Source: Clostridiales bacterium (GTDB taxonomy: Bacteria > Bacillota > Dehalobacteriia > UBA7702). Taken from it: DNA of 64,000 nucleotides. Each line of letters begins with the position of its first letter. The stretch's first letter is position 1. Position numbers and translations under genes: made by a program. Of the stretch, positions 488-42,099 are shown one piece after another. The notes under the pieces were generated by a model. That model was not told where the DNA came from, did not search any database, and worked only from the letters and a program-made list of their open reading frames with translations. The DNA is taken from contig JAXGZS010000001.1 in NCBI GenBank assembly GCA_040776805.1, forward strand, positions 621,206 through 685,205, written 5' to 3'.

Positions 488-516
488 TTGCAAAGGATGA
501 ATAAAAACTGTATAAT
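488..516 (+). promoter_or_regulatory. Sigma-A-like promoter (TTGCAA-17 nt-TATAAT) preceding the long non-coding region
   Basis: TTGCAA at 488-493 and TATAAT at 511-516 with a 17-nt spacer, directly downstream of the ispA stop codon. Confidence 0.5.
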
Positions 517-523
517 AATATGG

Positions 524-1722: not shown

Positions 1723-1723
1723 T

Positions 1724-9270: not shown

Positions 9271-9395
9271 TGGAAGAGAGCAAAGCTTTCTGGAAAGAGC
9301 AACAAAGATTCATGAGCGGATTTTTAACATATTGTATGAAGCCTCGTGAATGGGTTGTGGAAAAGAGCAAAAACACGGCAGATGGAAAGAAAAAT
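9271..9395 (+). repeat. Four purine-rich direct repeats (TGGAAAGAGCAA-like) in the 5' leader of fhs
   Basis: Copies occur at 9271, 9291, 9359 and 9383: tggaagagagcaaag / tggaaagagcaacaaag / tggaaaagagcaaaaac / tggaaagaaaaa. Confidence 0.5.
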
Positions 9396-9453
9396 TAAAA
9401 GTTCTTTACAAAGGAAAGAAAAGGAAACTAAAAAACGAGAGGAGAACAAAACT

Positions 9454-11211: not shown

Positions 11212-11232
11212 AAAAGATAGGAGGGAGCAGCG

Positions 11233-11862
11233 ATGCGATTTGCTGAAAAGACCTGTGATCAAGTGATCACGGAATTGGCTGCAAAAGCTCCCGTTCCCGG
11301 CGGCGGCGGTGCCTCAGCTCTGGTAGGGGCTGTAGGCACCGCCCTCGGCAATATGGTAGGGAGTTTCACCAAAGGAAAGAAAAAATTTGCGGACGTAGAA
11401 GAATCCATTATTTCCCTACAGGAAAAATGCGATGATCTGCAGAACAAGTTTTTAAATCTTATGGATGACGATGCAGAGAACTTTACACCGCTTTCGAAAG
11501 CCTACGGCATGAAAGAGGATACTCAAGAGCAGCGGGAGGAAAAGGCAAGAGTGATGGAGGAAGCGACCGTCAACGCCTGCCGCGTCCCGGAAAAGATTAT
11601 GGAACTATGCTGTGAAGCCATTGACGCTTTGGAGGAGTACCTGAAAATCGGGAATCCTCTCCTCGTCAGTGATGTGGGAGTCGGCGTTCTCTGCTGCAAG
11701 GCCGCCCTTTTTGGCGCGTCTTTGAATGTTTATATCAACACGAAGTCCATGCAAAACAAAGAAACCGCCTCTTCTATCAACGAGAGAACAGGGGAAATGC
11801 TGGCCGCCTACGGCAAAAAGGCGGATGACATTTACCATGCGGTGGCAAGACAGATCCAATAA
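11233..11862 (+). CDS. fchA: Methenyltetrahydrofolate cyclohydrolase (cyclodeaminase-domain protein)
   Basis: FTCD C-terminal cyclodeaminase-like fold (~209 aa, Gly-rich N-terminus VPGGGGASALVGA). It sits between fhs and folD, as in acetogens. Confidence 0.75.
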   Translation: MRFAEKTCDQVITELAAKAPVPGGGGASALVGAVGTALGNMVGSFTKGKKKFADVEESIISLQEKCDDLQNKFLNLMDDDAENFTPLSKAYGMKEDTQEQREEKARVMEEATVNACRVPEKIMELCCEAIDALEEYLKIGNPLLVSDVGVGVLCCKAALFGASLNVYINTKSMQNKETASSINERTGEMLAAYGKKADDIYHAVARQIQ

Positions 11863-11896
11863 ATATTAAACAATAAACAAAAGGAAGGGAGATATT

Positions 11897-12754
11897 ATGG
11901 CAAAGATTTTATCCGGTAAGGAAGTTGCCGCGGCTTTGAAAGAAGATCTTTTAAAACGTGTTGCGGCGTTAAAAGATAAGGGCGTCACGCCAACCTTAGC
12001 CATTGTGCGAGTGGGAGAAAAAGACAGCGACATTGCTTATGAAAAAGGCGCCATGAAAAAATCGGAAACCTTGGGCATTGCCGTGAAAAACGTCATTTTC
12101 CCGGCGGATGTGGAAGAAGCCAAACTCATTGCCGCCCTTGAAGAACTCAACGGCGCCAAGGATGTTCACGGTGTGCTGTTATTCCGTCCGTTACCCGAAC
12201 ATTTGAATTATGACCGTGTCTGCAATACGCTGATTGCGGATAAAGACGTCGACGCCATGACCACCATCAACAGCGGTTTGGTCTATGACGGCAGTGAGGA
12301 CGGGTTCCCTCCCTGCACCGCCCAGGCGGTTATGGAAATATTGGATTATTATGAGATTCCCGTTAAGAGCGCGAAAGTCGCTTTGGTGGGCTGGGGTGCC
12401 GTGGTCGGAAAACCCCTTTCCGTACTGTTGCTGAACCGCTTTGCCACCTTAACGGTGTGTCATATCTTTACAAAAGATGTCTCCACCCCCTGTCAAGACG
12501 CGGAGCTGATTATTTCTGCGGCAGGGAAAGCCAACTTGGTGGGAGAAAAACACTTGGCAAAAGGTCAGATCGTCATCGACGTGGGGATCAACGCAGACCC
12601 CAACAACCCCGGAAAAATCGTGGGGGATGTCGATTATGCTTATGCGGAAAACCTTGTTGACGCCATTACCCCGGTTCCCGGCGGCGTGGGCAGCGTTACC
12701 ACTTCCGTGTTGGCAAAACATGTGATCATGGCTGCTGAAAAAACCCTTAGATAA
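11897..12754 (+). CDS. folD: Bifunctional methylene-THF dehydrogenase / methenyl-THF cyclohydrolase
   Basis: 285 aa. Conserved FolD regions are present, including a GxGxVGKP Rossmann motif (GWGAVVGKP). Confidence 0.9.
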   Translation: MAKILSGKEVAAALKEDLLKRVAALKDKGVTPTLAIVRVGEKDSDIAYEKGAMKKSETLGIAVKNVIFPADVEEAKLIAALEELNGAKDVHGVLLFRPLPEHLNYDRVCNTLIADKDVDAMTTINSGLVYDGSEDGFPPCTAQAVMEILDYYEIPVKSAKVALVGWGAVVGKPLSVLLLNRFATLTVCHIFTKDVSTPCQDAELIISAAGKANLVGEKHLAKGQIVIDVGINADPNNPGKIVGDVDYAYAENLVDAITPVPGGVGSVTTSVLAKHVIMAAEKTLR

Positions 12755-12787
12755 TTCCTTCTAAGGCGACGAAAGGAGTTGAACCAC

Positions 12788-14377
12788 GTGACCAACAGAT
12801 TTAAGGAGTCTCTTTTGGACCCTGGTACCTTTTCGGTAACCTGGGAAATCGTCCCCGGTCGTGGCGCCAATGAAAAAGCCCAGATCGAAGCGATTGAAAC
12901 CGCCAAGGCAGGGGCGAAGGATCCCCGCATCCACGCCATCACCATTACAGACTGTCCCAGCGGGAATCCCGCGATTTTAGCGGAGAATCTGGGCAAAGAG
13001 ATTCTGGATTTGGGCATTGAGCCATTGGTTCATTTTACCTGTAAAGATAAAAACAGAACCCAAATGGAAAGCCAACTGTATGCCATGGCCAGAAGCGGTA
13101 TCCGCAACATACTGGTGATGACCGGTGACTATGTCAACGATGCCTATCAAGGCCGCGCCAAACCGGTTTTTGACATTGACCCCATTCAGTGCGGCGGCTT
13201 GATTTCCACCATGAATCAGGGCTTAGAATATCAAGTCGGTCCCAGAACCATCAAAAACCAACCCACCGATTTCTTTTACGGCTGTGCCGTATCGCCCTTC
13301 AAAAGTCAGGAATCCGAGCAGATCGGACAGTATAACAAGCTGATCAAAAAAGTGAGAGACGGCGGCGCGCAATTTGTCATTTGCCAGCTGGGCTATGATA
13401 TACGGAAATTCCATGAAACCTTCCAATTTATGGAGCAAAATGGGCTGAACGTACCTTTGGTTGGCAATATTTACATTTTGCCTTTCGGCGCAGGGAGATT
13501 GATGAACAGAAACGGGATTCCCGGCGCTGTCGTCACCGATAAGCTTCTGCACCAGCTTGAAAAAGAAAAACAGGCGGAAGATAAGGGCAAAGAAGCGAGA
13601 TTGATGCGGGCTGCAAAAATGTACGGCATCATGAAGGGCATCGGTTTTGCCGGCGCTCACATCGGCGGCCACGGCATGAGCGCCGATGATATGGATTATA
13701 TCATCGTCGAAGGCGAAAAGTACGCGGGTAACTGGAAATCCCATGTAGATGAATTCGATTATCCCATGAAAAACGGTTTCTATTATTATCAGAAGGATCC
13801 CGAAACGGGTCTGAATTCGGAAAAACGTACGGAAATCGATCCCGATAATTTGGAATTCCGCGTGGGCGGGATCTATCATATGTCCCATTTTGTCCACTGG
13901 CTGATGATGACTCCGGGGAAAAATCTTTTTAACTTTATGCGCGGTTTCTACAAACTCATCGACGATACCAAAGTGGAGCGTCCCTATCACTTCTGCGAAC
14001 ACATGGCAAAGGTTATGCTCTATGACTGCAAAGACTGCGGCGACTGCGCCATGACCCATACGGCCTACGCCTGTCCGATGTCGAAATGTCCCAAACATCA
14101 AAGGAACGGCCCCTGCGGCGGCAGCCGTGACGGCTGGTGCGAAGTATATCCCGAGAAGAAGAAATGCATCTACGTCAAAGCCTATACCCGCCTGAAAGGG
14201 TACGGCTTGGAAGAGGAATTATCTACATATTCCGTGGCGCCTTGCGACTGGAAACTTTACCAGAAGCCCTCTTGGGTCAATTATTTCCTCGGCCGCGATC
14301 ATGATGCGAAACGCTTGGGCATTCCTTATGTGCCGCCGAAAGCGGAACGCAAAGCAATGAAACGGAACGCAAAATAA
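12788..14377 (+). CDS. metF: Methylenetetrahydrofolate reductase fused to a C-terminal MetV-like Cys-rich zinc-ribbon domain
   Basis: The N-terminal ~300 aa are alignable to MTHFR (EIVPGRG, HFTCKD, ILVMTGD). The C-terminal ~230 aa carry CKDCGDCA...CPMSKCPKHQRNGPCGG, the MetV / MTHFR-C-terminal-domain signature. GTG at 12788 is preceded by AAGGAG. Confidence 0.85.
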   Translation: MTNRFKESLLDPGTFSVTWEIVPGRGANEKAQIEAIETAKAGAKDPRIHAITITDCPSGNPAILAENLGKEILDLGIEPLVHFTCKDKNRTQMESQLYAMARSGIRNILVMTGDYVNDAYQGRAKPVFDIDPIQCGGLISTMNQGLEYQVGPRTIKNQPTDFFYGCAVSPFKSQESEQIGQYNKLIKKVRDGGAQFVICQLGYDIRKFHETFQFMEQNGLNVPLVGNIYILPFGAGRLMNRNGIPGAVVTDKLLHQLEKEKQAEDKGKEARLMRAAKMYGIMKGIGFAGAHIGGHGMSADDMDYIIVEGEKYAGNWKSHVDEFDYPMKNGFYYYQKDPETGLNSEKRTEIDPDNLEFRVGGIYHMSHFVHWLMMTPGKNLFNFMRGFYKLIDDTKVERPYHFCEHMAKVMLYDCKDCGDCAMTHTAYACPMSKCPKHQRNGPCGGSRDGWCEVYPEKKKCIYVKAYTRLKGYGLEEELSTYSVAPCDWKLYQKPSWVNYFLGRDHDAKRLGIPYVPPKAERKAMKRNAK

Positions 14378-14416
14378 CGCAGTCAGCAGAAATAAGATTT
14401 CAGTTAGGGTGATTTT

Positions 14417-14785
14417 ATGTTCAACATCAGTTTTGCCGAGCTTATGGTTATTCTGCTCATCACCTTCCTGGTGTTGGGACCGAAAGAAATGGCCAAAGTC
14501 GCCCGGGGTTTGGGCAAAGCCGTCAAAAAAGCCCAAAACTTTGTGACGGATATGAAGAACTTTGTCAATGAAAGCGCGGAAGGCACCCCTTTAAACGATA
14601 TGAAGGAGGCGGTTACCGACGTCAAGGAAGCGGTCGATTCAGTAAAAGCCGAAGTTGATAAAATGAACCCTGTCAGTGATCTCAAAAAAGAGATCGAAAC
14701 GGAAATCAAACCGATACAAGACATCAAAAACTTAAAGACCAATCCTGCCAAAAAAGGAGCGGATCTTTTGCAGAAAAAAAAGTAA
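14417..14785 (+). CDS. tatB: TatA/TatB family twin-arginine translocase subunit
   Basis: An N-terminal TM helix is followed by a hinge and an amphipathic helix (FGPKEMAKVARGLGKAVKK). The acidic/charged tail is longer than in TatA. Confidence 0.75.
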   Translation: MFNISFAELMVILLITFLVLGPKEMAKVARGLGKAVKKAQNFVTDMKNFVNESAEGTPLNDMKEAVTDVKEAVDSVKAEVDKMNPVSDLKKEIETEIKPIQDIKNLKTNPAKKGADLLQKKK

Positions 14786-14815
14786 AATCCTTTTAAGAAA
14801 GGGGGAAACCTCTCA

Positions 14816-16429
14816 ATGAGTAAGGGAAATAAAAAGGAAAAAATTGATCCCAAACTAACAAGACGACAATTCTTGGGACTTACCGCCGCCGCCGGTACCA
14901 TGGCGGCGCTCACCGGTTGCGATGTTGTGGATAAAGTAGGCGGCAATGACAATTGGCTGCCCACCCAATACCGCAACAGCGGCAACTACCCGATCAACGC
15001 CAAGGGGCGCATTCCCATCGATCCCGATAATCCGTCGATCATGCGCATCGACGAGAAATGCATCCTCTGCGGGCAGTGCATTGAGGTATGCCAGAATACA
15101 CAGACCATTCACGGTTACTATAAATTGCCTGTTTTGGATACCTTTATGTGCATTAACTGCGGGCAGTGCAGTTTGTGGTGTCCCACCGGTGCCATCCAGG
15201 AAAAGCCCTATATCGACGAGGTTAATGCAGCCATCAACGATCCCGATAAGATCGTGGTGGTGGCCATCTCTCCCGGGGTGCGCATCTCCATCGGCGAAGA
15301 ATTCGGCATGGAGGCGGGGACTTGGGCCCAGGAACAAATGGTTACTGCCGTCCGCCGTCTCGGTGCGGATTACGTATTCAATATCGACTTCTCCTCAGAC
15401 TCCACCATCATGGAGGAAGGCAGCGAGTTTGTCCACCGTGTTACCAACGATGGTGTTCTGCCTCAGTTTACCTCCTGCTGTCCGGCATGGAAGAAATTTG
15501 TCGAATTATACTATCCGGAATTGATTCCCAACATCTCATCGGCAAAAAGCCCCGTGGCGGAAATGGCTGCCTTGGTAAAGACCTATTGGGCGAAGAAAAA
15601 AGGGATCGATCCCTCTAAAATCGTCTATGTGAACGTTCCGCCCTGTACCTGCAAGAAATTCGAAGCCACCACGTTCAATATCGATTCGGCAGCCCGATAT
15701 TGGGAAGAATATGAAGATATCGATTACGGTGCTATCCCCGATATCGATTATGTGCTTTCCACCAGAGAGCTGGCGAGGATGATCAAAACCGCTAATATTG
15801 ATTTTGTCAATTTGCCCGCGGGAGAATTCGACCCCATGCTCAGTGAAGGCAGCGGCGCGGCGGTGATTTTCGCCAACAACGGCGGCGTGATGGAAGCGGC
15901 GATTCGTACCGCCTATTATCTCGTCACCGGAGAGGATCCCCCGGACGACCTTTATCATTTGACGGCTGTCCGCGACAACGACCTCGACGGGTATGCCGAA
16001 GGCAGCCTTGAGGTTCCCGGTTTCGGCACCCTCAATGTGGCGGTTTGCAACGGGTTACACGCCGCCCGTACCCTCTGTGAAGAGATCAAACAGGGCAAAC
16101 GCCCTGAATTGCATTTCCTGGAAGTCATGGCCTGTCCCGGCGGTTGTATCGGCGGCGGCGGCCAGGCCAGAAAAACAGTGCCTCCTACGGACGCTCTGCG
16201 GAAAGCCCGTATTGATTCCATTTACGCTGCCGATGAGGCCATGAATAAAGCGGACAGAGTCAGCTACAAGAATGCTGAAATCGCCACTTTATACAAAGAA
16301 TTCCTCGGTGAGCCTTTGAGCGAACTGTCGGAGTTACTCCTGCATATGCACTACATCGACAGAAGTAAGTCGGTCCATCCGAAAGATACCTCGGATTACG
16401 TCGATACTTACTTCTCCGGTTTGGAATAG
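14816..16429 (+). CDS. hydA: [FeFe]-hydrogenase catalytic subunit with Tat signal peptide and lipobox (exported, membrane-anchored)
   Basis: The N-terminus carries an RRQFLG twin-arginine motif followed by a lipobox LTGC. There are two ferredoxin-like CxxCxxCxxxCP motifs. All three H-cluster signatures are present: TSCCPAW (L1), PPCTCKKFE (L2) and MACPGGCIGGGGQ (L3). Confidence 0.9.
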   Translation: MSKGNKKEKIDPKLTRRQFLGLTAAAGTMAALTGCDVVDKVGGNDNWLPTQYRNSGNYPINAKGRIPIDPDNPSIMRIDEKCILCGQCIEVCQNTQTIHGYYKLPVLDTFMCINCGQCSLWCPTGAIQEKPYIDEVNAAINDPDKIVVVAISPGVRISIGEEFGMEAGTWAQEQMVTAVRRLGADYVFNIDFSSDSTIMEEGSEFVHRVTNDGVLPQFTSCCPAWKKFVELYYPELIPNISSAKSPVAEMAALVKTYWAKKKGIDPSKIVYVNVPPCTCKKFEATTFNIDSAARYWEEYEDIDYGAIPDIDYVLSTRELARMIKTANIDFVNLPAGEFDPMLSEGSGAAVIFANNGGVMEAAIRTAYYLVTGEDPPDDLYHLTAVRDNDLDGYAEGSLEVPGFGTLNVAVCNGLHAARTLCEEIKQGKRPELHFLEVMACPGGCIGGGGQARKTVPPTDALRKARIDSIYAADEAMNKADRVSYKNAEIATLYKEFLGEPLSELSELLLHMHYIDRSKSVHPKDTSDYVDTYFSGLE

Positions 16430-16442
16430 GAGGTGAGCATTG

Positions 16443-17267
16443 ATGAGTAGTAATAGTGCTGTTTTATTCAACGTTGCCAAATGCATTGGCTGCGGCAGCT
16501 GTACCGTTGCCTGCAAACTATGGAACGACCTTGAATTCGGGGATAGCAATGCTCACGGATTTGACGCGGCATTGGCCGCGGATAACTGGACCGTTGTTCA
16601 GTATCACGCCATTAAAAACAAAGAGGATCAAAGCGTATTCCGTTTTGCCAAACGCCAATGTATGCACTGCCTGGAACCTTCTTGCGCTTCCGTTTGTTTC
16701 GCCAACGCCATTACCGTGGACGAAAGCGGCGCCGTGGTTTACAGCCCCAAAAAATGTGTGGGTTGCCGCTATTGCCTGATTGCCTGTCCCTTTGACGTGC
16801 CGAAATACGAGTGGAATAAGGTCTTCCCTTCGGTGATGAAATGCCAGCTTTGCAATGATAAATTGGCGGAAGGCGAAATTCCTTCCTGCGTTTCGGTTTG
16901 TCCCACCGGCGCCCTTATTTTCGGCGACCGCGACAAACTGCTGGAAAAAGCCCATGCCATCATCGCCACTTCCGCGGCCACGGAAAATATGGAAGCAACC
17001 CATTACGTCAATGAGGTCTACGGTGAAAAACAGGCGGGGGGTACCCGTTGGCTGTATATCTCCGACGTTCCTTTCACGGAATTGGGCTTCCCCGCTTCCG
17101 TGCCGAAGAAGAGCATACCGGGAATTGTCCAAGATTACACCAAGTGGAAACCGGGGGTATTTCTGGGAGCCGCCGCGGCCTTTGGCGCCATCGGCATCTA
17201 TACCAAACGCAGACTGAAAATTGAAGAAGAAAAAGCCGGTGAGAATGGAGGCGAAAATAATGTTTGA
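16443..17267 (+). CDS. Four-cluster [4Fe-4S] electron-transfer subunit (FdnH/HybA/PsrB-like) with C-terminal TM anchor
   Basis: Four Cys clusters are present (CIGCGSCTVAC, CMHCLEPSCASVC, CVGCRYCLIACP, CQLC...CVSVCP). There is no signal peptide. A C-terminal hydrophobic helix GVFLGAAAAFGAIGIY is followed by KRRLK. Confidence 0.85.
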   Translation: MSSNSAVLFNVAKCIGCGSCTVACKLWNDLEFGDSNAHGFDAALAADNWTVVQYHAIKNKEDQSVFRFAKRQCMHCLEPSCASVCFANAITVDESGAVVYSPKKCVGCRYCLIACPFDVPKYEWNKVFPSVMKCQLCNDKLAEGEIPSCVSVCPTGALIFGDRDKLLEKAHAIIATSAATENMEATHYVNEVYGEKQAGGTRWLYISDVPFTELGFPASVPKKSIPGIVQDYTKWKPGVFLGAAAAFGAIGIYTKRRLKIEEEKAGENGGENNV

Positions 17268-18471
17268 TTATACTCTCAAGATCAATAAAAAAGCAAGTTT
17301 TCGCTTTACACTGACGCGTTGGATCCTTTTGCTTTTGGCCGCGTTCGGCATCTTCATTTTGATCTACCGCCTCATCAACGGCTTGGGGGCCACCACGAAT
17401 TTGTCTGACGAATGGCCCTGGGGCTTTTGGATCTATATGGATTTGATCTTAAGCGCCTTGGGCGCCTGCGGTTTCGCCGTCGCCATTCTAACCCACATTT
17501 TCCATGTGGAAAAATTCAAACCGTTGGCCCGCAGAGCCTTGCTGATGTCATTTTGCTGTTATGTCCTCGTATTCCTGATTCTCTTTATTGAAATCGGGCG
17601 TTGGGATAACTTCTACTGGTTCTTTATTTCGGGAGCTTTTACTTCACCCCTTTATGAAGTGGCCATTTGTATCACCCTCTACATCATCGTGCAGGTATTT
17701 GAACTTTTGGAAGTTTGGGGCGACCGTTATAAATCCTGGGTGAAACATATTACCCGGTTTTTCCTGCCCTTCTTTGTCCTCTTGGCCTGTATCATTCCCT
17801 TTGGTCAAGAAGCGGCATACGGCGCGCTTTACCTGGCGATGCCGGCGAAACTCAGCACGATTTGGTACTCGCAATTCCTGCCTTGGGCTTGTTTGATCAC
17901 TTCGTTTTCCGGTGGTCTCTGTTTTGTGGCTGCGGAATATTACGCCCACAACCGTCACTATAAAAAGACCTCCGACGACGCCATGATCAAGAGCTTGCTG
18001 CGGGTTGCCGGTGCCTTCATCCTCATCTACATCGTACTGAAATTCGTCGATCTTTCCGTGCGCGGCGCCTGGACCGAAGTGTTCTCCGGCTCTGCTTCCG
18101 GAAATATGTTCCTCGTAGAATTCATTGTGGGTTCCATTGTTCCTGCGGTGCTGATTTTCAGCCCCATGATCAAGAACTCAATGTGTCAGCTGATTGCCGC
18201 CATTTGCGGTATATTGGGTGTATTAATCAATCGTTTTGATTTCGTTTTTGTCGGCATGGCAGGCTACACCGACGTATCCTATTTCCCCAAATGGACAGAA
18301 ATTTGGCTGGTCATCGGCCTTACCGCGCTGGTGGCGCTAGTCTATATCTTCGCCGTTGAAAACCTTCCCGTCAACCAGGGGAAACACGACGAAAAACCGG
18401 ACATCGTCAGCCGTCCGCCGGCAGGGATCATCCATGTATCCAAAAATGAACAAAACAGTGTTTCTGAATAA
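17260..18471 (+). CDS. NrfD/PsrC/HybB-family integral membrane (quinone-interacting) subunit
   Basis: ~400 aa with 8-10 hydrophobic helices. The typical NrfD-like N-terminal region is present. ATG at 17260 is preceded by GGAGG and overlaps the upstream gene by 8 nt. Confidence 0.8.
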   Translation: MFDYTLKINKKASFRFTLTRWILLLLAAFGIFILIYRLINGLGATTNLSDEWPWGFWIYMDLILSALGACGFAVAILTHIFHVEKFKPLARRALLMSFCCYVLVFLILFIEIGRWDNFYWFFISGAFTSPLYEVAICITLYIIVQVFELLEVWGDRYKSWVKHITRFFLPFFVLLACIIPFGQEAAYGALYLAMPAKLSTIWYSQFLPWACLITSFSGGLCFVAAEYYAHNRHYKKTSDDAMIKSLLRVAGAFILIYIVLKFVDLSVRGAWTEVFSGSASGNMFLVEFIVGSIVPAVLIFSPMIKNSMCQLIAAICGILGVLINRFDFVFVGMAGYTDVSYFPKWTEIWLVIGLTALVALVYIFAVENLPVNQGKHDEKPDIVSRPPAGIIHVSKNEQNSVSE

Positions 18472-18515
18472 ACACGTTATTCTTGCCGAGAAGTAGGCAG
18501 AAGGGGGATGCTCTT

Positions 18516-18752
18516 ATGAGAATTGGTGTATGGGAAATACTTCTGATCATCGTTTTGGTGCTTATCCTTTTTGGTGGCGCCAAGTTAGCCGGGGTCGGCA
18601 AAAACTTGGGACGCGGCATCAAAGAGTTTAAAGAAGAGGTTAAAGACACCGGCGAATCCTCTCCACAGGTTGCGGAAGCGTCTGCGGAAGAAACCAAAAA
18701 AGCGGAAGATACCGAAAAAAAGGAAGCTAAAAATTCCGAGCCCGACGCATAA
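18516..18752 (+). CDS. tatA: Twin-arginine translocase subunit TatA
   Basis: ILLIIVLVLILFGGAKLAGVGKNLGRGIKEFK is a canonical TatA TM-hinge-amphipathic-helix region. Confidence 0.9.
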   Translation: MRIGVWEILLIIVLVLILFGGAKLAGVGKNLGRGIKEFKEEVKDTGESSPQVAEASAEETKKAEDTEKKEAKNSEPDA

Positions 18753-18778
18753 TAAGTTTATCATTTCGTAAGAAGAAG

Positions 18779-19570
18779 GTGAGGCCATTGGCTGATACGA
18801 AGCAGGCGCTGATAGAGCATTTGAATGAGTTGCGCAAAACCTTGATGTATTGCGTGATTGTCTTAGCTGTTAGCTTTGTGCTTGTATTCGCGTTGTTTTG
18901 CGATCCGCTGATGGAGATACTCTTGGCGCCGATCCGCAAGCTCGGTGTGGAATTGGTCTATACGACCTTGACCGAAGTTTGGGTGGTGAAAATGAAAGTC
19001 TCCTTTATTGCGGGGTTTGTGCTTTCTTTTCCCGTCATTTCTTTCTTTTTCTGGCGCTTTCTGCGCCCGGCCTTGTATGCCAGTGAAAAAAGAATGTTTG
19101 CCGTGATGTATTTTTCCTCCCTTTTTCTTTTTATTCTCGGTGTTTGCTTCGCTTTTGTCGCCGTATTGGGTCTAAGCATCAATTTCTTTATTTCCTTTGG
19201 CAGCGGCACTGCTGAACCCATGCTCTCCATCAGCAAGGTGGTCAGCTATATGATGAGCTTCATCATTCCTTTCGGCTTAGTATTCTTGCTGCCTTTGGTG
19301 GTGTATATCCTTACTAAAATCGGCGTCTTGTCTCCCGCGTTATTGGTGAAATCGCGGAAGTATGTCATCGTGATTCTGTCTGTTTTGGCGGCGATTTTGA
19401 CACCTCCGGATATCATTTCACAAATTTTGCTCCTCATTCCTATGCTTCTTTTGTGGGAAATCAGCGTGTTCATCGCGAAACGCGTAAAAGTGAACAAAGA
19501 CCGGCGTGAGGCCAGAGAAAGCCTCGACGCCGGCATAAAAAAGGATGAATCAAAGAGTACAACGGAATAA
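18779..19570 (+). CDS. tatC: Twin-arginine translocase subunit TatC
   Basis: Six TM helices are predicted, with the N-terminal LIEHLNELRKTL signature and the size typical of TatC. Confidence 0.9.
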   Translation: MRPLADTKQALIEHLNELRKTLMYCVIVLAVSFVLVFALFCDPLMEILLAPIRKLGVELVYTTLTEVWVVKMKVSFIAGFVLSFPVISFFFWRFLRPALYASEKRMFAVMYFSSLFLFILGVCFAFVAVLGLSINFFISFGSGTAEPMLSISKVVSYMMSFIIPFGLVFLLPLVVYILTKIGVLSPALLVKSRKYVIVILSVLAAILTPPDIISQILLLIPMLLLWEISVFIAKRVKVNKDRREARESLDAGIKKDESKSTTE

Positions 19571-19706
19571 CGGTCTACTGTAAGCCTTGGTACTGAAGGT
19601 ACTTCTGTCCATTGAAAAGACGCTTTACAAAAATCGTTCGCAACCGCAAAGGGCATCTTCGCGATTGCCGTTGTTTCGCCTTGATACACGAAAGAAGGAG
19701 AATATT

Positions 19707-20528
19707 ATGAGTTTTTTAGCTCCCAATGAAATTGCGAAGGCAGTTTCAACCCTTGGCGAAAAGAAGGGGAAAATGTCTGTCGGCAAACTGATTCTGCCCG
19801 GCCTCCTCGCCGGTGCGTATATTGCTTTGGCCGCAGTGGCCTGTATCACCATAGGCGCCGGCTGGGTCGGCGACTGGGCGGCTTCCGGCTTGAATAAGGC
19901 CGCCGGCGCCGCCGCCTTTACCGTCGGCCTCATGCTTGTGGTGGTTGCCGGCGCCGAATTGTTTACCGGTGACAATATGTATTGCGCCGTTTCTTACCTG
20001 GATAAAAAATCCACCCTTGGTGAGTTGGTGAGAAACTGGGTCACGGTTTACTTCACCAACTTCATCGGCGCCCTGGTCGTGGTATCCATGATCTATTTGG
20101 GCGGTTTCCTCCTAGCCAACGGTGAGCCTTCGGCTTTCGCGACCAAAGCCATTGCCATCGCCACGGCAAAATCCTCCCTCACCTGGGGGCAGGCATTCTT
20201 CCGCGGTATTTTCTGTAACTGGCTGGTTTGCCTCGCCGTCTGGATGGCCGTGGGCTCCCAGGATATTATCAGCAAGATCTTTGCTTGCTTTTTCCCCATC
20301 TTCACCTTCGTACTTTGCGGTTTTGAACACAGTGTCGCCAATATGTTCTTCATTCCCATGGGGATCATCGCGGCCAACGGTTCCGTGGATGTTCTCACCG
20401 TCAGCAACTTTTTAGTGGGCAACCTGATCCCCGTTACCCTCGGCAACATTGTCGGCGGCGGTATTTTCGTGGGTCTCGTTTACTACCTCATGTACCTCAA
20501 AGGCGCGGATGTCAAATTGAAAGCCTAA
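19707..20528 (+). CDS. focA: Formate/nitrite transporter family channel (FocA-like)
   Basis: FNT signature motifs ELFTGDNMY and FEHSVANM are present, with six TM segments. ATG at 19707 is preceded by AAGGAG. Confidence 0.85.
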   Translation: MSFLAPNEIAKAVSTLGEKKGKMSVGKLILPGLLAGAYIALAAVACITIGAGWVGDWAASGLNKAAGAAAFTVGLMLVVVAGAELFTGDNMYCAVSYLDKKSTLGELVRNWVTVYFTNFIGALVVVSMIYLGGFLLANGEPSAFATKAIAIATAKSSLTWGQAFFRGIFCNWLVCLAVWMAVGSQDIISKIFACFFPIFTFVLCGFEHSVANMFFIPMGIIAANGSVDVLTVSNFLVGNLIPVTLGNIVGGGIFVGLVYYLMYLKGADVKLKA

Positions 20529-20635: not shown

Positions 20636-20675
20636 ACCTCTGTGCTTTGATGGCACAGAGGTTCTTTTTTGGCTC
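20636..20675. terminator. Rho-independent terminator after focA
   Basis: cctctgtgc tttgatg gcacagagg, followed by ttcttttttgg. Confidence 0.75.
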
Positions 20676-22412: not shown

Positions 22413-22494
22413 AAAAAACTCCTACAAATGACGCAAAGCCGCGTATCTGTAGGAGTCATTAGCTAAAAAGCGATTCAGTGAACTCCATCACTAT
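22413..22494 (-). promoter_or_regulatory. Fluoride riboswitch (crcB motif), copy 2 (gene-proximal), with intrinsic terminator
   Basis: Minus-strand RNA: AGUGAUGGAGUUCACU-GAAUCGC-...-GCUAAUGACUCCUAC. It has a P1 helix, an AUGGAGUU loop, an AAAC-like joint and the conserved 3' AAUGACUCCUAC pseudoknot strand. The terminator hairpin at 22419-22455 (ctcctaca...tgtaggag plus U-run) overlaps the 3' aptamer strand. Confidence 0.8.
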
Positions 22495-22523
22495 CGTGGA
22501 TATTGGATTTTTTAAATTTGACC

Positions 22524-22606
22524 ATAAAAAAACACCTACTTCAAATTCATGAAAGTAGGAGCCATTAGCAATTTTCATTGCGTTTCGGTGAGCCCCATCA
22601 CCATAA
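22524..22606 (-). promoter_or_regulatory. Fluoride riboswitch (crcB motif), copy 1 (promoter-proximal), with intrinsic terminator
   Basis: Minus-strand RNA: GGUGAUGGGGCUCACC-GAAACGCAAUGAAAAUUGC-UAAUGGCUCCUAC. It is near-colinear with the Thermotoga petrophila fluoride aptamer (GGCGAUGAGGCCCGCC-CAAACUGCCCUGAAAAGGGC-UGAUGGCCUCUAC). The terminator hairpin at 22533-22559 plus a U7 run overlaps the pseudoknot strand. Confidence 0.85.
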
Positions 22607-22610
22607 CGAG

Positions 22611-22639
22611 ATTATAGCACGTTGCTTTTTCTTTGTAAA
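22611..22639 (-). promoter_or_regulatory. Promoter (TTTACA-17 nt-TATAAT, minus strand) for the riboswitch-antiporter-usp operon
   Basis: Reverse complement reads ctcTTTACAaagaaaaagcaacgtgcTATAATctcg, directly 5' of aptamer 1. Confidence 0.6.
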
Positions 22640-22753
22640 GAGAAAATTTTCGGGGAAGCAACGTCTTTTGTCAAAAAAAAGGGAATCAGCTTGACAAAAG
22701 GACGCTAAAATCAGTATGATATAGCAAGAGATACGAAAAGAAGAGGTGATCAT

Positions 22754-23520: not shown

Positions 23521-25656
23521 TTATCCTTGCCCGGTTTCGGCGATTTTCCATCCTGTCTCAGGGGATTCAAAGACCATGGTAAAATTGGAAGATTGGTATC
23601 CGCTCTCCGTGGTGACGGTTTGCTTGTATTCCATCTCCGCCGTGACCCCGTAAACATCGCTGCTGTAGGAGGACGGCTCTATTTCGATCAGCCTGGCGGA
23701 TTTCAGATTTTCAAGGGGGTCTTTGGCGTTGATATCAGCGTCCGTCAAAGGCAGATAGACCATCTCTGAAAAGAGACTTTGATTCAACATGTTGGTGGAC
23801 AACTGTTCCAGCAGGGTTCTTTTGGCAATGCAGATTGCCGCCGCATGGGAATCTCGGTCAGAGAGGGCCTTGAAATACGTTTCGATGACCTCTTCCGGTG
23901 AAAGCTTAGACATTTCCTTTTCCGTGGCGTCCGCTTTTACACTGTGGGAAAGCCAATCGTCAACGGTTTCTCCCGCCGCTGTTTCAAAGCTCTTACCCTT
24001 TAGGCTGCAAGCAGAGAAGGTATTGTGACGCCCGGCGCTGATGAACGCGGCCACGGTTTTGTTACCGCTCTTTACGACGATGCCCCGGCAGCTTTTGATC
24101 GGGCTAAATTCCGCCGGCATGCTTTCGTGAATGCGGTAGATGGCGACAGTGACGTTTTTGCCGCCGTATGCGCTCATGTCGAGGCCGATGTCTTTAGAAA
24201 GGACGTTGTGGTAGGCAAAATAGTAGGTGTTGGCGTCGAAGCTTGACAGTGCATTGATATCGCCCAGTTTCAGCTTCTTTTCGCTGATCTCATAATCCAG
24301 GGTCCAGCCGTATTCCTGAAACAGCGCCGCGTCGTCTTTGTTCAACTGAAAATCCATGCCGGTGTTTTCAAAAAGGGCGTCGACATAACGGCCAAAGTCT
24401 TCCCCTGTTTCATAGAGGCCGCCGTCTTTTTCGATGAAAGCCTCATCGTAAAGGTCGTCATAATAAAGGGTGCAGTTGGTTTTGTCGCCGTTGCCCGATA
24501 GGGTGATGGCGTAGGACTGAAAGGTGTTGCTGTCTAATGCGGGAGTTTTTGCTGTTTCTGCCGCGGTGCTTGTTCTTATTGTTGTATCAATGTAGCTGAC
24601 GGCCTGGGGGGCGTCGCTTTGAAATTGGTCCGTGGATTTGAAGCCCATCATATCGGAGCGGTCGGTAACGCTTACGCTGTCATAGGAGCTGGTATACGCC
24701 GTTTCGGCGCTATGCTCCGTCTCCTTGCCGGCGACCAGGAAGAAGGTTCCCGCGGCGACCACAAGAAGGGCCGCAATGCTGACCCAAACGGCGGGTTTTC
24801 GATAACGCAGCACGTTTTTGACCCGATCTTTGACCCCGATTTCGCCGAAGGCGAGGGGGGTAAAAAAGCCGCGTCCTTTTACTGCCAAAGATAAAAGAGA
24901 ACCGGCATATGCTGTTCGGATATCCCCGGGATAGCGTTTCATGACGCTTTCATCCGCCGATAGCTCCATGTCCCGGATCATCAGGGCGTAGCATAGCCAC
25001 ACCAGAGGATTAAACCAATGGATTGCGGTGATGAAAAACGTCAGGGGCTTGATGAGATGATCAAAGCGGCGGATATGTGTCTCTTCGTGGGCTGTAACGT
25101 ATGTTAGCTCCATCGGTTCAAGCCCGGTGGGCACGTAGATGCGGGGACGGAAAAAGCCCAGGACGAAAGGGGTTTTGATGCGGTCGGTCTCGTAGACGCG
25201 GCCTCCCCGGCGCACCGCGGTTCTTACCCTGTATTTTAAGCGCAGATAACCGGTAATGCCATAGGCGGTGAGGACAAGGACGATGCCAAACCAAAGGTAG
25301 GCCCCGACGGTAACAGCGGTTTTCATGGGAGTTGCGCTATTTCCCACGGTGGCCGCCGGCAGGGAGCGGACCATCATATCGTTGACGGTGTCGTCAAGGA
25401 CAGGGATGCCGCTGGCAATGGCAGGATTCTCGGCATAGGCGATGTTTTGCGGTATGGTCTGAGAATCAACGGGAACGGCGCTCACCGGTAAGGCGACGGT
25501 AAAGGGGCAGATCAGTCGGAAAAATACCACAGCCCAAAGGGCGTATGAGTAGATCTTTGGCGCTTTGGTCAAGGGCAGGCGGAGCGCGATGACAATCAAG
25601 GCGACGAAGCTCGCGCTGAGGCTGATATTTAAAATGCCAATCCATAAATCAGTCAT
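23521..25656 (-). CDS. BlaR1/MecR1-like M56 peptidase-family membrane sensor/antirepressor with a ~400-aa non-PBP extracytoplasmic C-terminal domain
   Basis: Four N-terminal TM helices are predicted, with the HEETH zinc-metalloprotease motif and a further TM helix. The long C-terminal domain lacks a penicillin-binding SxxK signature. The gene overlaps blaI-like by 4 nt. Confidence 0.8.
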   Translation of the reverse strand: MTDLWIGILNISLSASFVALIVIALRLPLTKAPKIYSYALWAVVFFRLICPFTVALPVSAVPVDSQTIPQNIAYAENPAIASGIPVLDDTVNDMMVRSLPAATVGNSATPMKTAVTVGAYLWFGIVLVLTAYGITGYLRLKYRVRTAVRRGGRVYETDRIKTPFVLGFFRPRIYVPTGLEPMELTYVTAHEETHIRRFDHLIKPLTFFITAIHWFNPLVWLCYALMIRDMELSADESVMKRYPGDIRTAYAGSLLSLAVKGRGFFTPLAFGEIGVKDRVKNVLRYRKPAVWVSIAALLVVAAGTFFLVAGKETEHSAETAYTSSYDSVSVTDRSDMMGFKSTDQFQSDAPQAVSYIDTTIRTSTAAETAKTPALDSNTFQSYAITLSGNGDKTNCTLYYDDLYDEAFIEKDGGLYETGEDFGRYVDALFENTGMDFQLNKDDAALFQEYGWTLDYEISEKKLKLGDINALSSFDANTYYFAYHNVLSKDIGLDMSAYGGKNVTVAIYRIHESMPAEFSPIKSCRGIVVKSGNKTVAAFISAGRHNTFSACSLKGKSFETAAGETVDDWLSHSVKADATEKEMSKLSPEEVIETYFKALSDRDSHAAAICIAKRTLLEQLSTNMLNQSLFSEMVYLPLTDADINAKDPLENLKSARLIEIEPSSYSSDVYGVTAEMEYKQTVTTESGYQSSNFTMVFESPETGWKIAETGQG

Positions 25657-26012
25657 TTTGCCGCCTCCTCAATCATCTTCTTTATCTGCTCCGCTTCTTC
25701 CCGGGAAAGTTTTTTGTCCTGGAGAAAGGCGGCGACGAAGGTGGGTAGAGAATTGTCAAAGCTCTTTTCCATGATTTGTTCGCTCTCGTATTTTTGCACT
25801 TGAAGGCGTTTGATGAGAGAACTGACGACGGCCTCTTCGTTTTTTAAGATGCCCCGCGCCGAAAGGCGTTTCAGCACCGAGTAGGTGGTGGATTTTTTCC
25901 AGCCCAACTCCTTTTGGCAGAGCTTGACCAATTCCGTGGAATTGACGGGCTCCTTTTCCCAAACAATTTCCATGAGGCGGTATTCTGCGTCGAATATTTT
26001 GATCTCCTTCAT
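25653..26012 (-). CDS. BlaI/MecI/CopY family transcriptional repressor
   Basis: 119 aa with a winged-helix N-terminus (STELVKLCQKELGWKKSTTYSVLKRLSARG) typical of penicillinase-repressor-family proteins. The operon partner is the M56 sensor. Confidence 0.85.
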   Translation of the reverse strand: MKEIKIFDAEYRLMEIVWEKEPVNSTELVKLCQKELGWKKSTTYSVLKRLSARGILKNEEAVVSSLIKRLQVQKYESEQIMEKSFDNSLPTFVAAFLQDKKLSREEAEQIKKMIEEAAK

Positions 26013-26150: not shown

Positions 26151-29100
26151 GGGCTGTTTTTTGTTTAGCTTTTTTTTGGCCACGGCCATCATCAGCTTAA
26201 TGCGGTTGAGCTGATTGGATTCACTGGCGCCGGGGTCGTAGTCCACGGCGATGATGTTGCTTTGGGGGAACTGTCGCCGCAGTTCCTTTAGAGCGCCCCG
26301 GCCTGTAATGTGGTTGGGCAGGCAGGCGAAAGGCTGCATGCAGACGATGTTCTCAACGCCGCTTTCGATTAGCTCAATCATTTCGCCGGTTAAGAACCAA
26401 CCCTCCCCGGCCTGGTGGCCTAAGGACACGACACCTTTGGTTTTTTCCGCTATTTTGTCAATAAAACTCGGCGGGTCAAAACGTTTGCTTTGTTTCAAGG
26501 CCTCCCGCAAAGTTTTTCGGGAGCGCTCCAAAACGGCGATGAGCAATTTACCCCAATAGTAGCCGGAGCGTTTGCCCTTTAAATAGAGGCTTTTGTACTT
26601 GGCGTTATAGGCGCAATAGAGGAAAAAATCGAGGAGGGAAGGCATCTTAGCTTCGCCACCCTCTCTTTCGATCAACTCCACAATATGGTTGTTGGCGTCA
26701 GGAGAAAACTTCACTAAGATTTCGCCCACCAGCCCGACTCGGGGTTTCGTTTCATCGTTGAGGGCTAAACAGTCAAAATCTTTGACGATGGTGAACATTT
26801 CTTTTTTATATTGGCGTACACCGCCCTTCGCCACCGTGACTTTGCCCTTCGCCACCCATTTTTCGTAAAGTTCCATGGCGCTCCCTGTGACTTTTTCATA
26901 GGGGCGTGTGCGGTAGAGGACGTTCATTAGGAGATCACCGTAGTTGATCGCCATAAAAGCGCGTTTGAGCAGTGTGGGCGTCCACTTCATGCCCGGATTG
27001 CTTTCCAGTCCTTGGGCGGAAAGGGCGATTACGGGAATCTGTGCCATACGGCATCTTGCAGCGCTTTTCTGATAAAGGCAACGTAGTTGGTGGCTCGGCA
27101 CTGGCCCCGGTCTGGGACATCATGAGGGAGATGTTATCGAGATCGTATTTGCCACTCTTGAGGGCGTTCATCAGTTGGCCCGTCGTTAGAATACAGGGGT
27201 AACAGGCGTCGTTGTGGACGTGGCGCAAACCCTCTTCCATGTCTTCGGCGGTCACCTCGGGAATCACTTCCAGATTATAGCCGCAGGCGTCAAAGGCCAC
27301 CTGCAAAAACTGAAAGTGGATCGGGGACATCTGAGGAGCTAAAATCGTATGCCGCTTCTTCATTTCCTTGGTGAAGACGGCTTTCGGCGGCGGGACAAAG
27401 GGAACAAAAGGCGTTGTTTCGCGGTTTTGCTCTTTCTGTTCATCAATGGTGACCTTGAGGGAGCGCACGCGGATGCGGGCGGCGCCGAGATTGTCGCCTT
27501 CGTCAATTTTGATGTTCGTATAGACTTTATTGTGGCGTTCCAATATTTCAGCGATCTGATCACTGGTGACGGCGTCGAGGCCGCAGCCGAAGGAGGTCAG
27601 CTGAATCAGATCAATATCATCTCTGGTGGCGGCGAAGGTCGCGGCGGCATAGAGCCGTGAATGGAAAGCCCACTGGTCCAGGACGCGCAAGGGGCGCTCC
27701 GGCGCCGTCAGGTGAGAAACGCTGTCCTCCGTAAAAACCGCCATGCCTTGATGGGTGATGATATTGGGTAACCCGTGATTGATTTCCGGGTCGATGTGGT
27801 AGGGGCGGCCCGCCAGAATAATCCCGTGCAGATCATGGGCTTCGATAAAGTGAAGGGCTTCCTCGCCTTTTTGACGCAGATCCGCTTTGAAGGCGTCGTC
27901 CTCCCGGTAAGCCTGCTCCACGGCGTCGCCGATTTCTTTGGCCGTGATGCCGAAGTCCCGGAAGGCTTTGATTAAGCCCTCTTCAAGACGGCTCTTATCC
28001 TCTAAAGTGATGATCGGATGCAGGAATTTGATGGCATGATCCCTGATCTGTTCCACGTTGTTTTTGATGACTTCGGGATAACCGGAAACCACGGGGCAGT
28101 TGAAGTTGTTGTCGCAGTTTTCATCCTCAATCTGCTCGTAGATGGTGCCGGGGTAGAAAATCGTCTCAATGCCCCGATTGATCAAAGACACGATATGGCC
28201 GTGGACGAGTTTGGCGGGATAGCAGACGGCTTCGGAAGGAATCGTTTCCATGCCCAGCTCAAACATTTTTTTATCGCTCTTCCCCGAAAGCACGACGCGA
28301 AAACCGAGGGCTGTTAAAAACGTGTGCCAGAAGGGATAGTTCTCATAGAGGTTGAGCACCCGGGGAATGCCGATTTCGCCCCGGGGCGCGTCTTCTTTTT
28401 TCAGAGAAGCATAGGAAAACAGCCGCTTGTATTTGTAGTTGAAAAGGTTTGGGATGTCGCTTTTCTTGATTTCGATATCGGCCCCGCGTTCACAACGGTT
28501 ACCGGAGATGAACTGTCTGTTGTCGGTAAATTTCATCACCGTCAGCAAACAGCGGTTGGGGCACTTGTCGCAGTGGCGGAAGGTCTTTTCGTAGCGGAAA
28601 TTTTGCAGTTCTTTTTGGCGCATAAGCGTTGTTTGGCGACCCGGTTGATACCGTTCCTTGGCGATGATGGCGGCGCCGTAAGCCCCCATCAGGCCGGCGA
28701 TATCGGGACGTACGATTTCCCTGCCGGTTTCCAGCTCAAAGCAGCGCAGAATGGCCTCGTTGTAGAAGGTACCGCCTTGGGCCAAAATCTTTTCGCCGTA
28801 TTCCTCGGGACGGCGGATCTTAATGACCTTATACAAAGCGTTTTTAATCACGGAGTAGGAAAGGCCGGCGGAGATATCCTCAATGGTAGCGCCTTCCTTT
28901 TGCGCCTGTTTGACCTTGGAGTTCATAAAGACGGTGCAGCGGTTGCCGAGATCTGCGGGAGAGTTGGAATCAATGGCCCGGGCGGCGAATTGATCTACGC
29001 TCATGCTGAGGCTGCGGGCAAAGGTATCAATGAATGAACCGCACCCGGAGGAGCAGGCTTCGTTTAAGATGATGCTCTCAATGACGTCGTTTTTGATGTG

Positions 29101-30411
29101 GATGGCTTTCATGTCCTGACCGCCGATGTCGAGGATAAAGTCCACGCCGGGCAAAAAGTGGCTGGCGGCTTTGTAGTGGGCCATGGTTTCCACTTCGCCG
29201 ATATCCACTTTGAGGGCAGCCTTGATCAGGTCTTCCCCGTAACCCGTGACCGTGGCGTTGACGATTTTCGCGTCCGCGGGGAGGGTTTGATAGATTTCGG
29301 AAAGAATCTTTACGCAGAGATCCAGAGGTTCCCCTCTGTTGCTTTCGTAGTGGGAATAGACAATGTTTTTGGCGTCGTCCATCAGCACCGTTTTCGAGGT
29401 GGTGGAGCCGGCGTCGATGCCGAGATAGAGGTTACCTTTTGCTTCGGACAGCGGTTTTTGGCCTGCTTTCGCCCGACTGTGACGTTCTCTGAAAGCGGCG
29501 AGTTCCGCTTTGTCGGTAAAGAGCGGTTTTAAACCTTGCTTTTCCGTAATATCGGTGAGATTCAAGGCTTCAACGCGCTGAATCAGGGCGGACAGGGGCA
29601 GCTCTTCCCCGCTGCCTTCTTCTCTGGCCACCAAAGCGCAGCCGTTGGATACGTAATAGTGAGCGTTTTCCGGCAGAATCGCCGTTTCTTCCGTAAGATT
29701 CAGCGTGCGGATAAAGGCTTTGCGCAGCTCCGGCAGAAAGTGAAGGGGTCCGCCTAAAAAGGCGATGTTGCCGCGAATCGGCTTGCCGCAGGCCAAGCCG
29801 CTGATGGTCTGGTTTACCACCGCCTGAAAAATGGACGCCGCAAGGTCTTCCCGGGCAGCACCTTGATTTAGAAGGGGTTGGATATCGGTCTTCGCGAAGA
29901 CGCCGCAGCGGGAGGCGATGGGGTAAATGATCTTATAGTATTTGGCCATATCATCCAAACCCTTGGCGTTGGTGTGCAATAGCAAGGCCATTTGGTCAAT
30001 GAAGGCGCCGGTACCGCCGGCGCAAGCCCCGTTCATGCGCTGCTCCATCACTTGTCCGAAATAGGTGATCTTGGCATCCTCGCCGCCAAGCTCAATGACG
30101 ACGTCGGTTTGGGGAATGAAGTACTCCACCGCTTTGGTGCAGGCAATGACCTCCTGTACGAAGTCCACGCCAATATGCCCGGAAAGACTGAGTCCTCCCG
30201 AGCCGGTAATGGCCATTTTGACCTTGATATCACCAAGGGCGTTTTTGGTTTGTTTCAATACATCTTCAACTGTGGCGCGAATATCAGAGTAATGCCGCTG
30301 ATAACAGCGGAAAAGGCAATTATTTTGCTCATCCAGTACAGTTACTTTGACAGTGGTGGATCCGATATCGAGACCGAGTACAGTTTGGGGAAATATTCTG
30401 CTCAAACGCAT
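26148..30411 (-). CDS. Giant CoA-substrate-specific enzyme activase (tandem BadF/BcrA/HgdC-type ATPase domains) fused to 2-hydroxyacyl-CoA dehydratase HgdB/D-component-like domains; reading frame interrupted by two apparent 1-nt deletions near 27035-27085
   Basis: Two acetate/sugar-kinase-fold activase domains begin LGLDIGSTTVKV and LYLGIDAGSTTSK, followed by dehydratase-component-like domains. The ORF from 30411 to 26935 and the ORF from 27101 to 26148 overlap by 167 nt in different frames. The third frame reads ATNYVAFIRKALQDA between them, so a continuous protein is restored by adding one G at each of two GG sites. Confidence 0.7.
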
Positions 30412-42023: not shown

Positions 42024-42099
42024 TGGAGCTGCTGAACGGATTCGAACCGTTGACCTGCGCATTACGAGTGCGCTGCTCTACCAGCTGAGCCACAGCAGC
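42024..42099 (-). tRNA. trnT: tRNA-Thr (anticodon CGU)
   Basis: Minus-strand sequence GCTGCTGTGGCTCAGCTGGTAGAGCAGCGCACTCGTAATGCGCAGGTCAACGGTTCGAATCCGTTCAGCAGCTCCA. The cloverleaf folds with a 7-bp acceptor stem, GTTCGAATC T-loop and encoded CCA. The anticodon loop is CT-CGT-AA. Confidence 0.9.

Follow-up and report, generated by a model that had tools for sequence, protein, structure and literature searches.

Tandem fluoride aptamers in the leader of an antiporter operon

The minus strand of a 64-kb stretch of the genome of a Clostridiales bacterium (GCA_040776805.1, contig JAXGZS010000001.1, positions 621,206 to 685,205; hereafter the window) carries a two-gene operon coding for a cation:proton antiporter and a universal stress protein (Usp). 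The leader of this operon contains two fluoride riboswitch aptamers, A1 and A2, arranged one behind the other and each followed by its own intrinsic terminator, T1 and T2 (Table 1). An earlier note on this DNA had proposed such a tandem on the minus strand and had placed it upstream of the antiporter and usp genes, and both proposals are borne out by the present analysis. A scan of the whole window at the Rfam gathering thresholds returned five matches, two to the Fluoride model RF01734 (crcB motif, cutoff 34 bits) and the others to OLE RNA, 6S RNA and a tRNA. The Fluoride matches, exactly two in number, are both above the cutoff and bracket the intervals ~22555-22606 and ~22449-22494, at which the earlier note had expected a covariance-model search to find them. 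No non-canonical pairs occur in either model alignment, and a pairing table compiled per sequence gives the same picture for A1 and A2, with 4/4 positions of P1 and 6/6 positions of the loop-to-tail pseudoknot paired. A composite pattern of two aptamers in series matched once in the window and not at all in 100 dinucleotide shuffles.

The gap between the two Rfam matches is 47 nt long and contains no open reading frame (ORF). Belonging to the same class, sharing one 5' leader without an intervening ORF and separated by no more than 300 nt, A1 and A2 constitute a tandem as defined by Sherlock et al. (2022), and the further marks of tandem riboswitches, an expression platform for each unit and recurrence in independent genomes, are present as well. 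Both units possess the ON-type platform of the fluoride riboswitch, that is, a hairpin with a U-tract overlapping the 3' part of the aptamer. The 5' arm of T1 is the 3' pseudoknot strand of A1, 4/6 nucleotides of which are taken into the hairpin, and the stable T2 (about -23.5 to -23.8 kcal/mol, z -6.0) engulfs all 6/6 nucleotides of the corresponding strand of A2, in agreement with the sequestration suggested by the earlier note. Transcription from the sigma-70-type promoter is predicted to start at ~22604-22602, which is the 5' foot of A1 P1. The minimum free energy fold of the whole 208-nt leader, which pairs the P3 region of A1 with the U-tract of T2, was treated as a thermodynamic artefact irrelevant to co-transcriptional folding.

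Table 1. Features of the tandem aptamer leader and its operon, in coordinates of the window (SD, Shine-Dalgarno sequence).
Feature	Position	Strand	Details
Sigma-70-type promoter	22639-22611	minus	-35 TTTACA (22639-22634), 17-nt spacer, extended -10 TG-n-TATAAT (hexamer 22616-22611); 11/12 matches
Fluoride aptamer 1 (A1)	22611-22549, core 22602-22555	minus	RF01734, 44.1 bits, E 6.2e-9, model 1-64/64; P1 GGUG/CACC; P3 GCAA/UUGC; pseudoknot GGGGCU/GGCUCC
Terminator 1 (T1)	22562-22524, hairpin ~22562-22532 + U7	minus	core CCUACUU / AAGUAGG, then UUUUUUUAU
Spacer between riboswitch units	22523-22502	minus	A/U-rich, poorly conserved, without ORF
Fluoride aptamer 2 (A2)	22501-22443, core 22492-22449	minus	RF01734, 45.6 bits, E 1.9e-9, model 1-64/64; P1 AGUG/CACU; P3 GCU/AGC; pseudoknot GGAGUU/GACUCC
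Terminator 2 (T2)	22457-22411, hairpin ~22457-22417 + U6	minus	long stem ACUCCUACAGAU...AUUUGUAGGAGU, then UUUUUUAUU
Ribosome-binding site and start of antiporter gene	AAAGGAG 22376-22370; TTG 22361-22359	minus	SD and TTG kept in relatives
Cation:proton antiporter, 410 aa	22361-21129	minus	PF00999 Na_H_Exchanger, 150.8 bits (cutoff 26.2)
Universal stress protein, 138 aa	21154-20738	minus	PF00582, 89.5 bits (cutoff 24), full length; second and last gene of the operon

Conservation of the tandem leader

The complete order of promoter, A1, T1, A2, T2, SD and TTG start recurs in at least six other independent assemblies with antiporters 75-87% identical. The closest relative retrieved, Peptococcaceae bacterium UBA7702 (L001/L002), has an antiporter of 87% identity and shares with the window the gene order and both aptamers. 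Two Rfam Fluoride matches 50-70 nt apart were as well found in loci from unrelated samples, namely L088 and L095 (antiporter 85%), L089 (79%) and L090 (76%). In L092 (75%), the A2 copy lies above the cutoff and the A1 copy, scoring 32.5 bits, is followed by a strong terminator. L092 has a further fluoride aptamer (1927-1986, minus strand), which is encoded on the opposite strand and directed towards a gene for a P-type cation ATPase. Its orientation diverges from that of the tandem antiporter operon, which in this locus includes DUF190, QueT and an N-terminal fragment of enolase.

Eight leaders were aligned with MAFFT and mean pairwise identity was computed by region. The cores of A1 and A2 reach 0.75 and 0.76, respectively, and the values outside the cores are 0.32 for the spacer between the units and 0.44 for the region from T2 to the SD. 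The promoter motifs TTTACA and TGnTAT.AT are invariant or nearly so among these leaders, and the conserved core GAUGG.G..C ... AUG.CUCCUAC is invariant across 14 aptamers and the eight leaders. Two aptamers of the same class within 110 nt could also be read as one cooperative sensor acting on a single shared expression platform, in the manner of the glycine riboswitch. Such a sensor is highly improbable at this locus, given that each aptamer has its own terminator and U-tract, that the spacer between them is conserved neither in sequence nor in length, and that no conserved pairing between the aptamers was seen.

Because MAFFT places the terminator 3' arms and the P3 5' arm one column apart in different sequences, the pairing of P1, pseudoknots and terminators was tabulated per sequence by script in place of alignment-based pair counts. 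P1 is paired at 4/4 and the pseudoknot at 6/6 positions in all orthologous copies that the search pattern picked up; A1 of L090 was missed by it. The pseudoknots fall into two classes, GGRGCU/GGCUCC in all A1 copies and GGRGUU/GACUCC in all A2 copies, which differ by a compensatory C-G versus U-A pair. The terminator stems show compensatory changes across the relatives too: CCUAC/GUAGG is replaced by CCUGC/GCAGG in orthologues of T1 (-17 to -31 kcal/mol) and by CCUGC/GCGGG in T2 of L088 and L095, with an inner CAC/GUG versus CGC/GCG. Judged by these sequences, A1 and A2 are distinct orthologous lineages, and the two lineages taken together with the compensatory changes argue for purifying selection on both riboswitch units and rule out an assembly artefact. 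Sherlock et al. (2022) warned that some tandems in databases may be assembly duplications. For the locus studied here, both such an origin and a very recent neutral duplication are effectively refuted, since seven or more independent assemblies, obtained from different samples, contain the arrangement and since A1 and A2 differ by ~25% and by an indel in P3, each with its own orthologues.

The antiporter and the universal stress protein

The antiporter consists of a CPA2-like membrane domain only, with NapA (4BWZ) and KefC as the closest solved structures, and it stays below the cutoff of the CPA2 subfamily model (NCBIfam TIGR00932, 128.9 versus 238.3 bits). An Asp-Asp pair at the ion-binding site, D156-D157 in NapA, defines the CPA2 family of monovalent cation:proton antiporters. 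The antiporter of the window has Asn-Asp aligned to this pair, in the motif around FVNDLA, and therefore lacks the canonical Asp-Asp; among its 120 closest homologues the same position is ND in 23 and TD in 95. Identity within the antiporter family amounts to 62-87% across Bacillota, Ignavibacteria and Thioploca. Such conservation is unusual and suggests that a specialised module has spread horizontally.

The usp gene overlaps the antiporter stop by 26 nt and is therefore probably translationally coupled to the antiporter gene; more speculatively, the overlapping and conserved Usp may be a regulatory partner of the antiporter. The pair of antiporter and 138-aa Usp is kept in L001, L088-L093 and L095. 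In L097 the antiporter is followed by a Usp of 146 aa, and the pair is part of a crcB-DUF190-dynamin-antiporter-Usp cluster beside MutS-like genes. The region between usp and focA in the window contains no obvious intrinsic terminator belonging to the usp operon. A strong hairpin in this region (20636-20662) was considered for that role and rejected, as its U-tract is on the plus strand only; it is the terminator of FocA.

Sixty metagenomic loci with more distant antiporter homologues (62-78% identity; L068-L087 were left out) were scanned with Rfam models, which were used instead of a simple regular-expression scan that missed most metagenomic copies owing to long P3 inserts. An upstream fluoride aptamer on the same strand was found in 46 of the 60 loci, and several of the misses had very little upstream sequence. 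The earlier note had called the antiporter and Usp non-canonical fluoride genes and had drawn from them the implication that ion export or pH homeostasis is part of fluoride defence. The label is not supported and the implication is not new, as the link is already established. According to a passage of PMC11139923 that cites Baker, Na+/H+ antiporters are the second most common genes associated with fluoride riboswitches, an association explained there by cytoplasmic acidification following the influx of HF. In C. difficile, a fluoride riboswitch precedes genes for a CLC protein and an NhaP-type antiporter (CD0656-7; PMC11477304). Usp is likewise a known associate, with uspA induced 120-fold within a riboswitch-controlled operon of E. 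cloacae FRM (PMC5533749). The 46 riboswitch-linked homologues, the crcB cluster of L097 and PMC11139923 all place the operon of the window among the genes of fluoride regulons.

Occurrence of tandem fluoride aptamers

Among the same 60 metagenomic loci, none has two aptamers within 300 nt of each other. One of them, L008 (180-659, antiporter 78%), carries two fluoride aptamers 348 nt apart, each with its own terminator, and the gap between them contains a possible ORF of 27 codons with a good Shine-Dalgarno sequence. In L008 the proximal copy is of A2 type and the distal one has a different pseudoknot (GAAGU/ACUUC), so that the distal aptamer was probably acquired separately.

A strict tandem pattern was searched in one representative genome per species, covering 185,579 species, and returned six loci. 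Four of these are true same-strand tandems, in UBA7702, Pelotomaculum terephthalicicum JT and the Bacillota metagenome-assembled genomes (MAGs) McBI.64 and HSP1.bin40; as the pattern allowed a gap of 40-70 nt only, the number of tandem-bearing species is at least four. The two remaining matches were discarded, L003 being a divergent pair on opposite strands and L005 having one aptamer only, before two crcB genes. In Pelotomaculum terephthalicicum JT (L004 1-1041, NZ_JAKNBL010000018.1), the antiporter ORF ends after ~50 codons, an IS21-like transposase comes next, and the gene looks like a recently inactivated copy. McBI.64 (L006 1200-1369) possesses an independent tandem, in which two aptamers of 55.5 bits precede a different antiporter of the Na_H_Exchanger type; its second unit is without a clear U-tract and may act on translation. 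In HSP1.bin40 (L007 1866-2170), three aptamers (36.6, 56.9 and 56.8 bits) stand before an operon for a hyfC/hycD-like formate hydrogenlyase/hydrogenase-4. A strong terminator with a U-tract is present in each of the two proximal units of this leader, and the first aptamer is separated from the second by a stretch containing a promoter-like TTGACA.

By 2017, the number of known fluoride riboswitches exceeded 2,500 (PMC5473149), and the census of Sherlock et al. (2022), based on RefSeq 80 and environmental data, lists Fluoride among the classes not found in tandem (PMC9481103, Table 3). The earlier note had described same-ligand tandems as rare. The arrangement is indeed unusual, and its rarity was under-rated, given that the fluoride class itself had been reported as absent from tandems. 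A 2025 survey of contiguous riboswitches (PMC12452182) mentions no fluoride case in its text and, in the supplement as far as covered, names fluoride only within lists of families and models. A search of open-access full texts for tandem fluoride riboswitches brought up nothing relevant, an unindexed earlier report being possible. The tandem fluoride architecture is thus apparently a conserved variant that has gone unreported, and the earlier census probably missed it because the genomes bearing it are MAGs or recently sequenced isolates.

Proposed regulation by two riboswitches in series

We consider it likely that two complete and independent fluoride riboswitches in series, both of them transcriptional ON switches, control the antiporter-usp operon. 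Directly observed are the aptamers with their terminators, the promoter, the genes and the conservation of all these. From the established behaviour of the riboswitch class and of same-ligand tandems we infer fluoride binding and the shape of the response; the independent action of the units and the reason for their selection are likewise part of the interpretation. In the absence of fluoride, each aptamer would lose its 3' pseudoknot strand (..CUCC..) to pairing within the intrinsic terminator, and RNA polymerase would stop after ~80 nt at T1 or ~190 nt at T2. With the Mg2+-fluoride complex bound, the pseudoknot would hold the 3' strand, the terminator would be blocked and transcription would go on. 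A full-length mRNA would require read-through at both T1 and T2, so that the output should be approximately the product of two read-through probabilities, that is, of two binding curves. For identical and non-interacting sites, simple algebra predicts that the basal leak is squared, that the response at low fluoride becomes second-order and that the ligand span from 10 to 90% narrows from 81-fold to ~40-fold. The steeper, more digital response that the earlier note attributed to same-ligand tandems is indeed ascribed to them in PMC9481103, where they are described as pseudo-cooperative. The operon would provide a CPA2-like cation/proton exchanger with its Usp partner, a standard pH- and ion-homeostasis arm of fluoride defence. 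Leaky expression of an exchanger dissipating the ion gradient would be costly, and tight double gating would plausibly prevent it.

A strong promoter combined with termination by default would also yield abundant short RNAs, of ~80 nt (A1-T1) and ~190 nt (A1-A2-T2). One may speculate that these RNAs are themselves functional, as a fluoride buffer or as a trans-acting small RNA, and that the tandem exists to make them; the use of riboswitch RNA to buffer fluoride has been suggested as an idea for engineering (PMC11777429). We regard this as very unlikely, because conservation is confined to the elements of aptamers and terminators; nor was complementarity to any target noticed, although no search aimed at it was made.

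Several points weigh against control by two units acting in series. A U-U mismatch makes T1 weak in this genome (-10.9 to -11.6 kcal/mol, z -2.3), 5-6 of 200 shuffles folding equally well, and the first checkpoint may therefore be leaky here. In the A1 copy of L092 a conserved AUG reads ACG, and the copy narrowly misses the 34-bit cutoff. In Pelotomaculum terephthalicicum JT both copies score 35-37 bits only, and the antiporter gene behind them is disrupted. Partial decay of A1 in some lineages calls for caution as to control by both units. The close relatives L094 (79%) and L096 (74%) carry one aptamer only. Besides, fluoride riboswitches are kinetically controlled, and the equilibrium product model is therefore only approximate.

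These points lead to the alternative that only the proximal A2 with T2 regulates the operon and that the distal A1 with T1 is a weak or decaying duplicate contributing little. Apart from the weakness of T1 in the window and the substitution in A1 of L092, it can draw on the pseudoknots of the single aptamers of L094 and L096 and of the proximal copy of L008, all of A2 type (GGAGU/ACUCC). The occurrence of this type in single-aptamer relatives suggests that the proximal unit is ancestral and that the distal unit was added in the tandem-bearing clade. On the whole, the alternative appears unlikely to us: the A1 core is as conserved as that of A2 in leaders whose spacers have diverged, the pseudoknot and P1 are fully paired in every A1 tested (that of L090 was not captured), and T1 in the relatives keeps its U-tract, shows compensatory stem changes and is considerably more stable than in the window. 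Control by two riboswitch units in series is hence the reading that we retain.

Genomic neighbourhood of the operon

The earlier note had stated that no crcB or eriC gene appears in the window. A Pfam scan of the non-overlapping ORFs of at least 80 aa, selected by a greedy choice keeping the longest, is in agreement with this statement, as none of the ORFs covered carries a CrcB (PF02537) or CLC domain. The scan covered all of the selected ORFs except three: a TatA-like one of 89 aa, a spurious one overlying the OLE RNA, and the BcrAD/DUF2229 ORF at 26935-30411, the last of which was identified by synteny with L001.

A small divergent ORF lies upstream of the riboswitch leader. Just upstream of the riboswitch locus, on the minus strand (23521-26012), a BlaR1-like sensor of the M56 peptidase type, bearing DUF4830 and DUF4829 domains, is encoded together with a BlaI/Penicillinase_R repressor, and this pair is syntenic in UBA7702. 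On its other side, the usp operon converges on genes for a FocA-like formate channel, a TatC/TatA pair and a Tat-exported [FeFe]-hydrogenase complex. They belong to a plus-strand region (9346-20528) that begins with a cluster of the methyl branch of the Wood-Ljungdahl pathway (fhs, fchA, folD, metF-like) and continues with TatA, a twin-arginine [FeFe]-hydrogenase, a 4Fe-4S protein, an NrfD-like membrane protein, TatA, TatC and FocA. Formate hydrogenlyase genes are common fluoride-riboswitch targets elsewhere, but the hydrogenase and formate genes of the window are outside the control of the fluoride switch.

The remaining structured RNAs of the window are a full-length OLE (ornate large extremophilic) RNA at 515-1118 (plus strand, 419.9 bits), a 6S RNA at 60085-60262 (plus strand, 77.9 bits) and a tRNA at 42027-42099 (minus strand, 72 bits). 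The OLE RNA has a polyprenyl synthetase fragment (20-448) on one side and dxs (1628-3595) on the other, a setting among isoprenoid genes that is typical for this RNA, and it marks the source as an anaerobic Bacillota. A ThiF-family ORF called at 60050-60778 overlaps the 6S RNA, and its real start is therefore probably further downstream.

Significance

What is new at this locus is the tandem arrangement; the fluoride riboswitch, pseudo-cooperative tandems and the association with antiporter and Usp genes are known parts. The window and its relatives fill the fluoride gap in the 2022 tandem census with a conserved example having two directly comparable units, and they offer a natural test of what is gained by doubling an ON switch for a toxic ion, whether a lower leak or a steeper threshold. 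This is of relevance for fluoride biosensors and for fluoride-gated expression systems built on the fluoride riboswitch. Attention is also drawn to a very conserved, almost always riboswitch-linked module of antiporter and Usp. The general picture of fluoride defence is left unchanged.

A broader reading, which we put forward as a tentative and rather doubtful one, would be that tandem and, in one apparent case, triple fluoride riboswitches are a recurrent and unreported arrangement of at least three independent origins, always standing before ion- or proton-translocating machinery, namely the CPA2-like antiporter-Usp module with N/T-D at the ion-binding site, the different antiporter of McBI.64 and the formate-hydrogenlyase/hydrogenase-4 operon of HSP1.bin40. 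The antiporter-Usp module, highly identical across phyla and without the canonical Asp-Asp, might then be not an ordinary Na+/H+ exchanger but a transporter dedicated to fluoride stress, and its leaky expression would be so costly as to select for double gating.

Comparison with known riboswitch systems

Single fluoride riboswitches, such as the transcriptional ON switch of B. cereus crcB and the structurally characterized aptamer of Thermotoga petrophila, have the same P1, P3 and loop-to-tail pseudoknot as the units of the window and the same core, GAUGGNGYUC...AUGNCUCCUAC. They also follow the same ON logic, in which a terminator competes for the 3' pseudoknot strand. The leader of the window differs from them in containing two complete units in series.

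Like the pseudo-cooperative tandems of TPP, SAM-I, SAM-II, ZTP, c-di-GMP-I, c-di-AMP and glycine riboswitches (Sherlock et al., 2022), the leader combines two riboswitches with a common ligand, each followed by a terminator of its own, separated by less than 300 nt without an intervening ORF and expected to give a steeper response. It differs from these tandems in that its ligand, fluoride, is an inorganic anion and toxic and that the two units are both of the ON type, so that the main benefit may be a lower leak in the OFF state and not a sharper feedback on a metabolite pool. The tandem glycine riboswitch resembles the window in having two homologous aptamers in one leader. However, the glycine aptamers dock and share one expression platform, whereas those of the window are each provided with a terminator and joined by an unconserved linker.

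The operons closest in gene content are CD0656-7 of C. difficile and ppaC-uspA-eno-gpmA-crcB of E. cloacae FRM, in which, as in the window, an antiporter or a Usp is placed under a fluoride riboswitch. Both of these operons combine a single riboswitch with a fluoride exporter, in contrast to the operon of the window, which has two riboswitches in its leader and, like the scanned ORFs of the window as a whole, no exporter domain.

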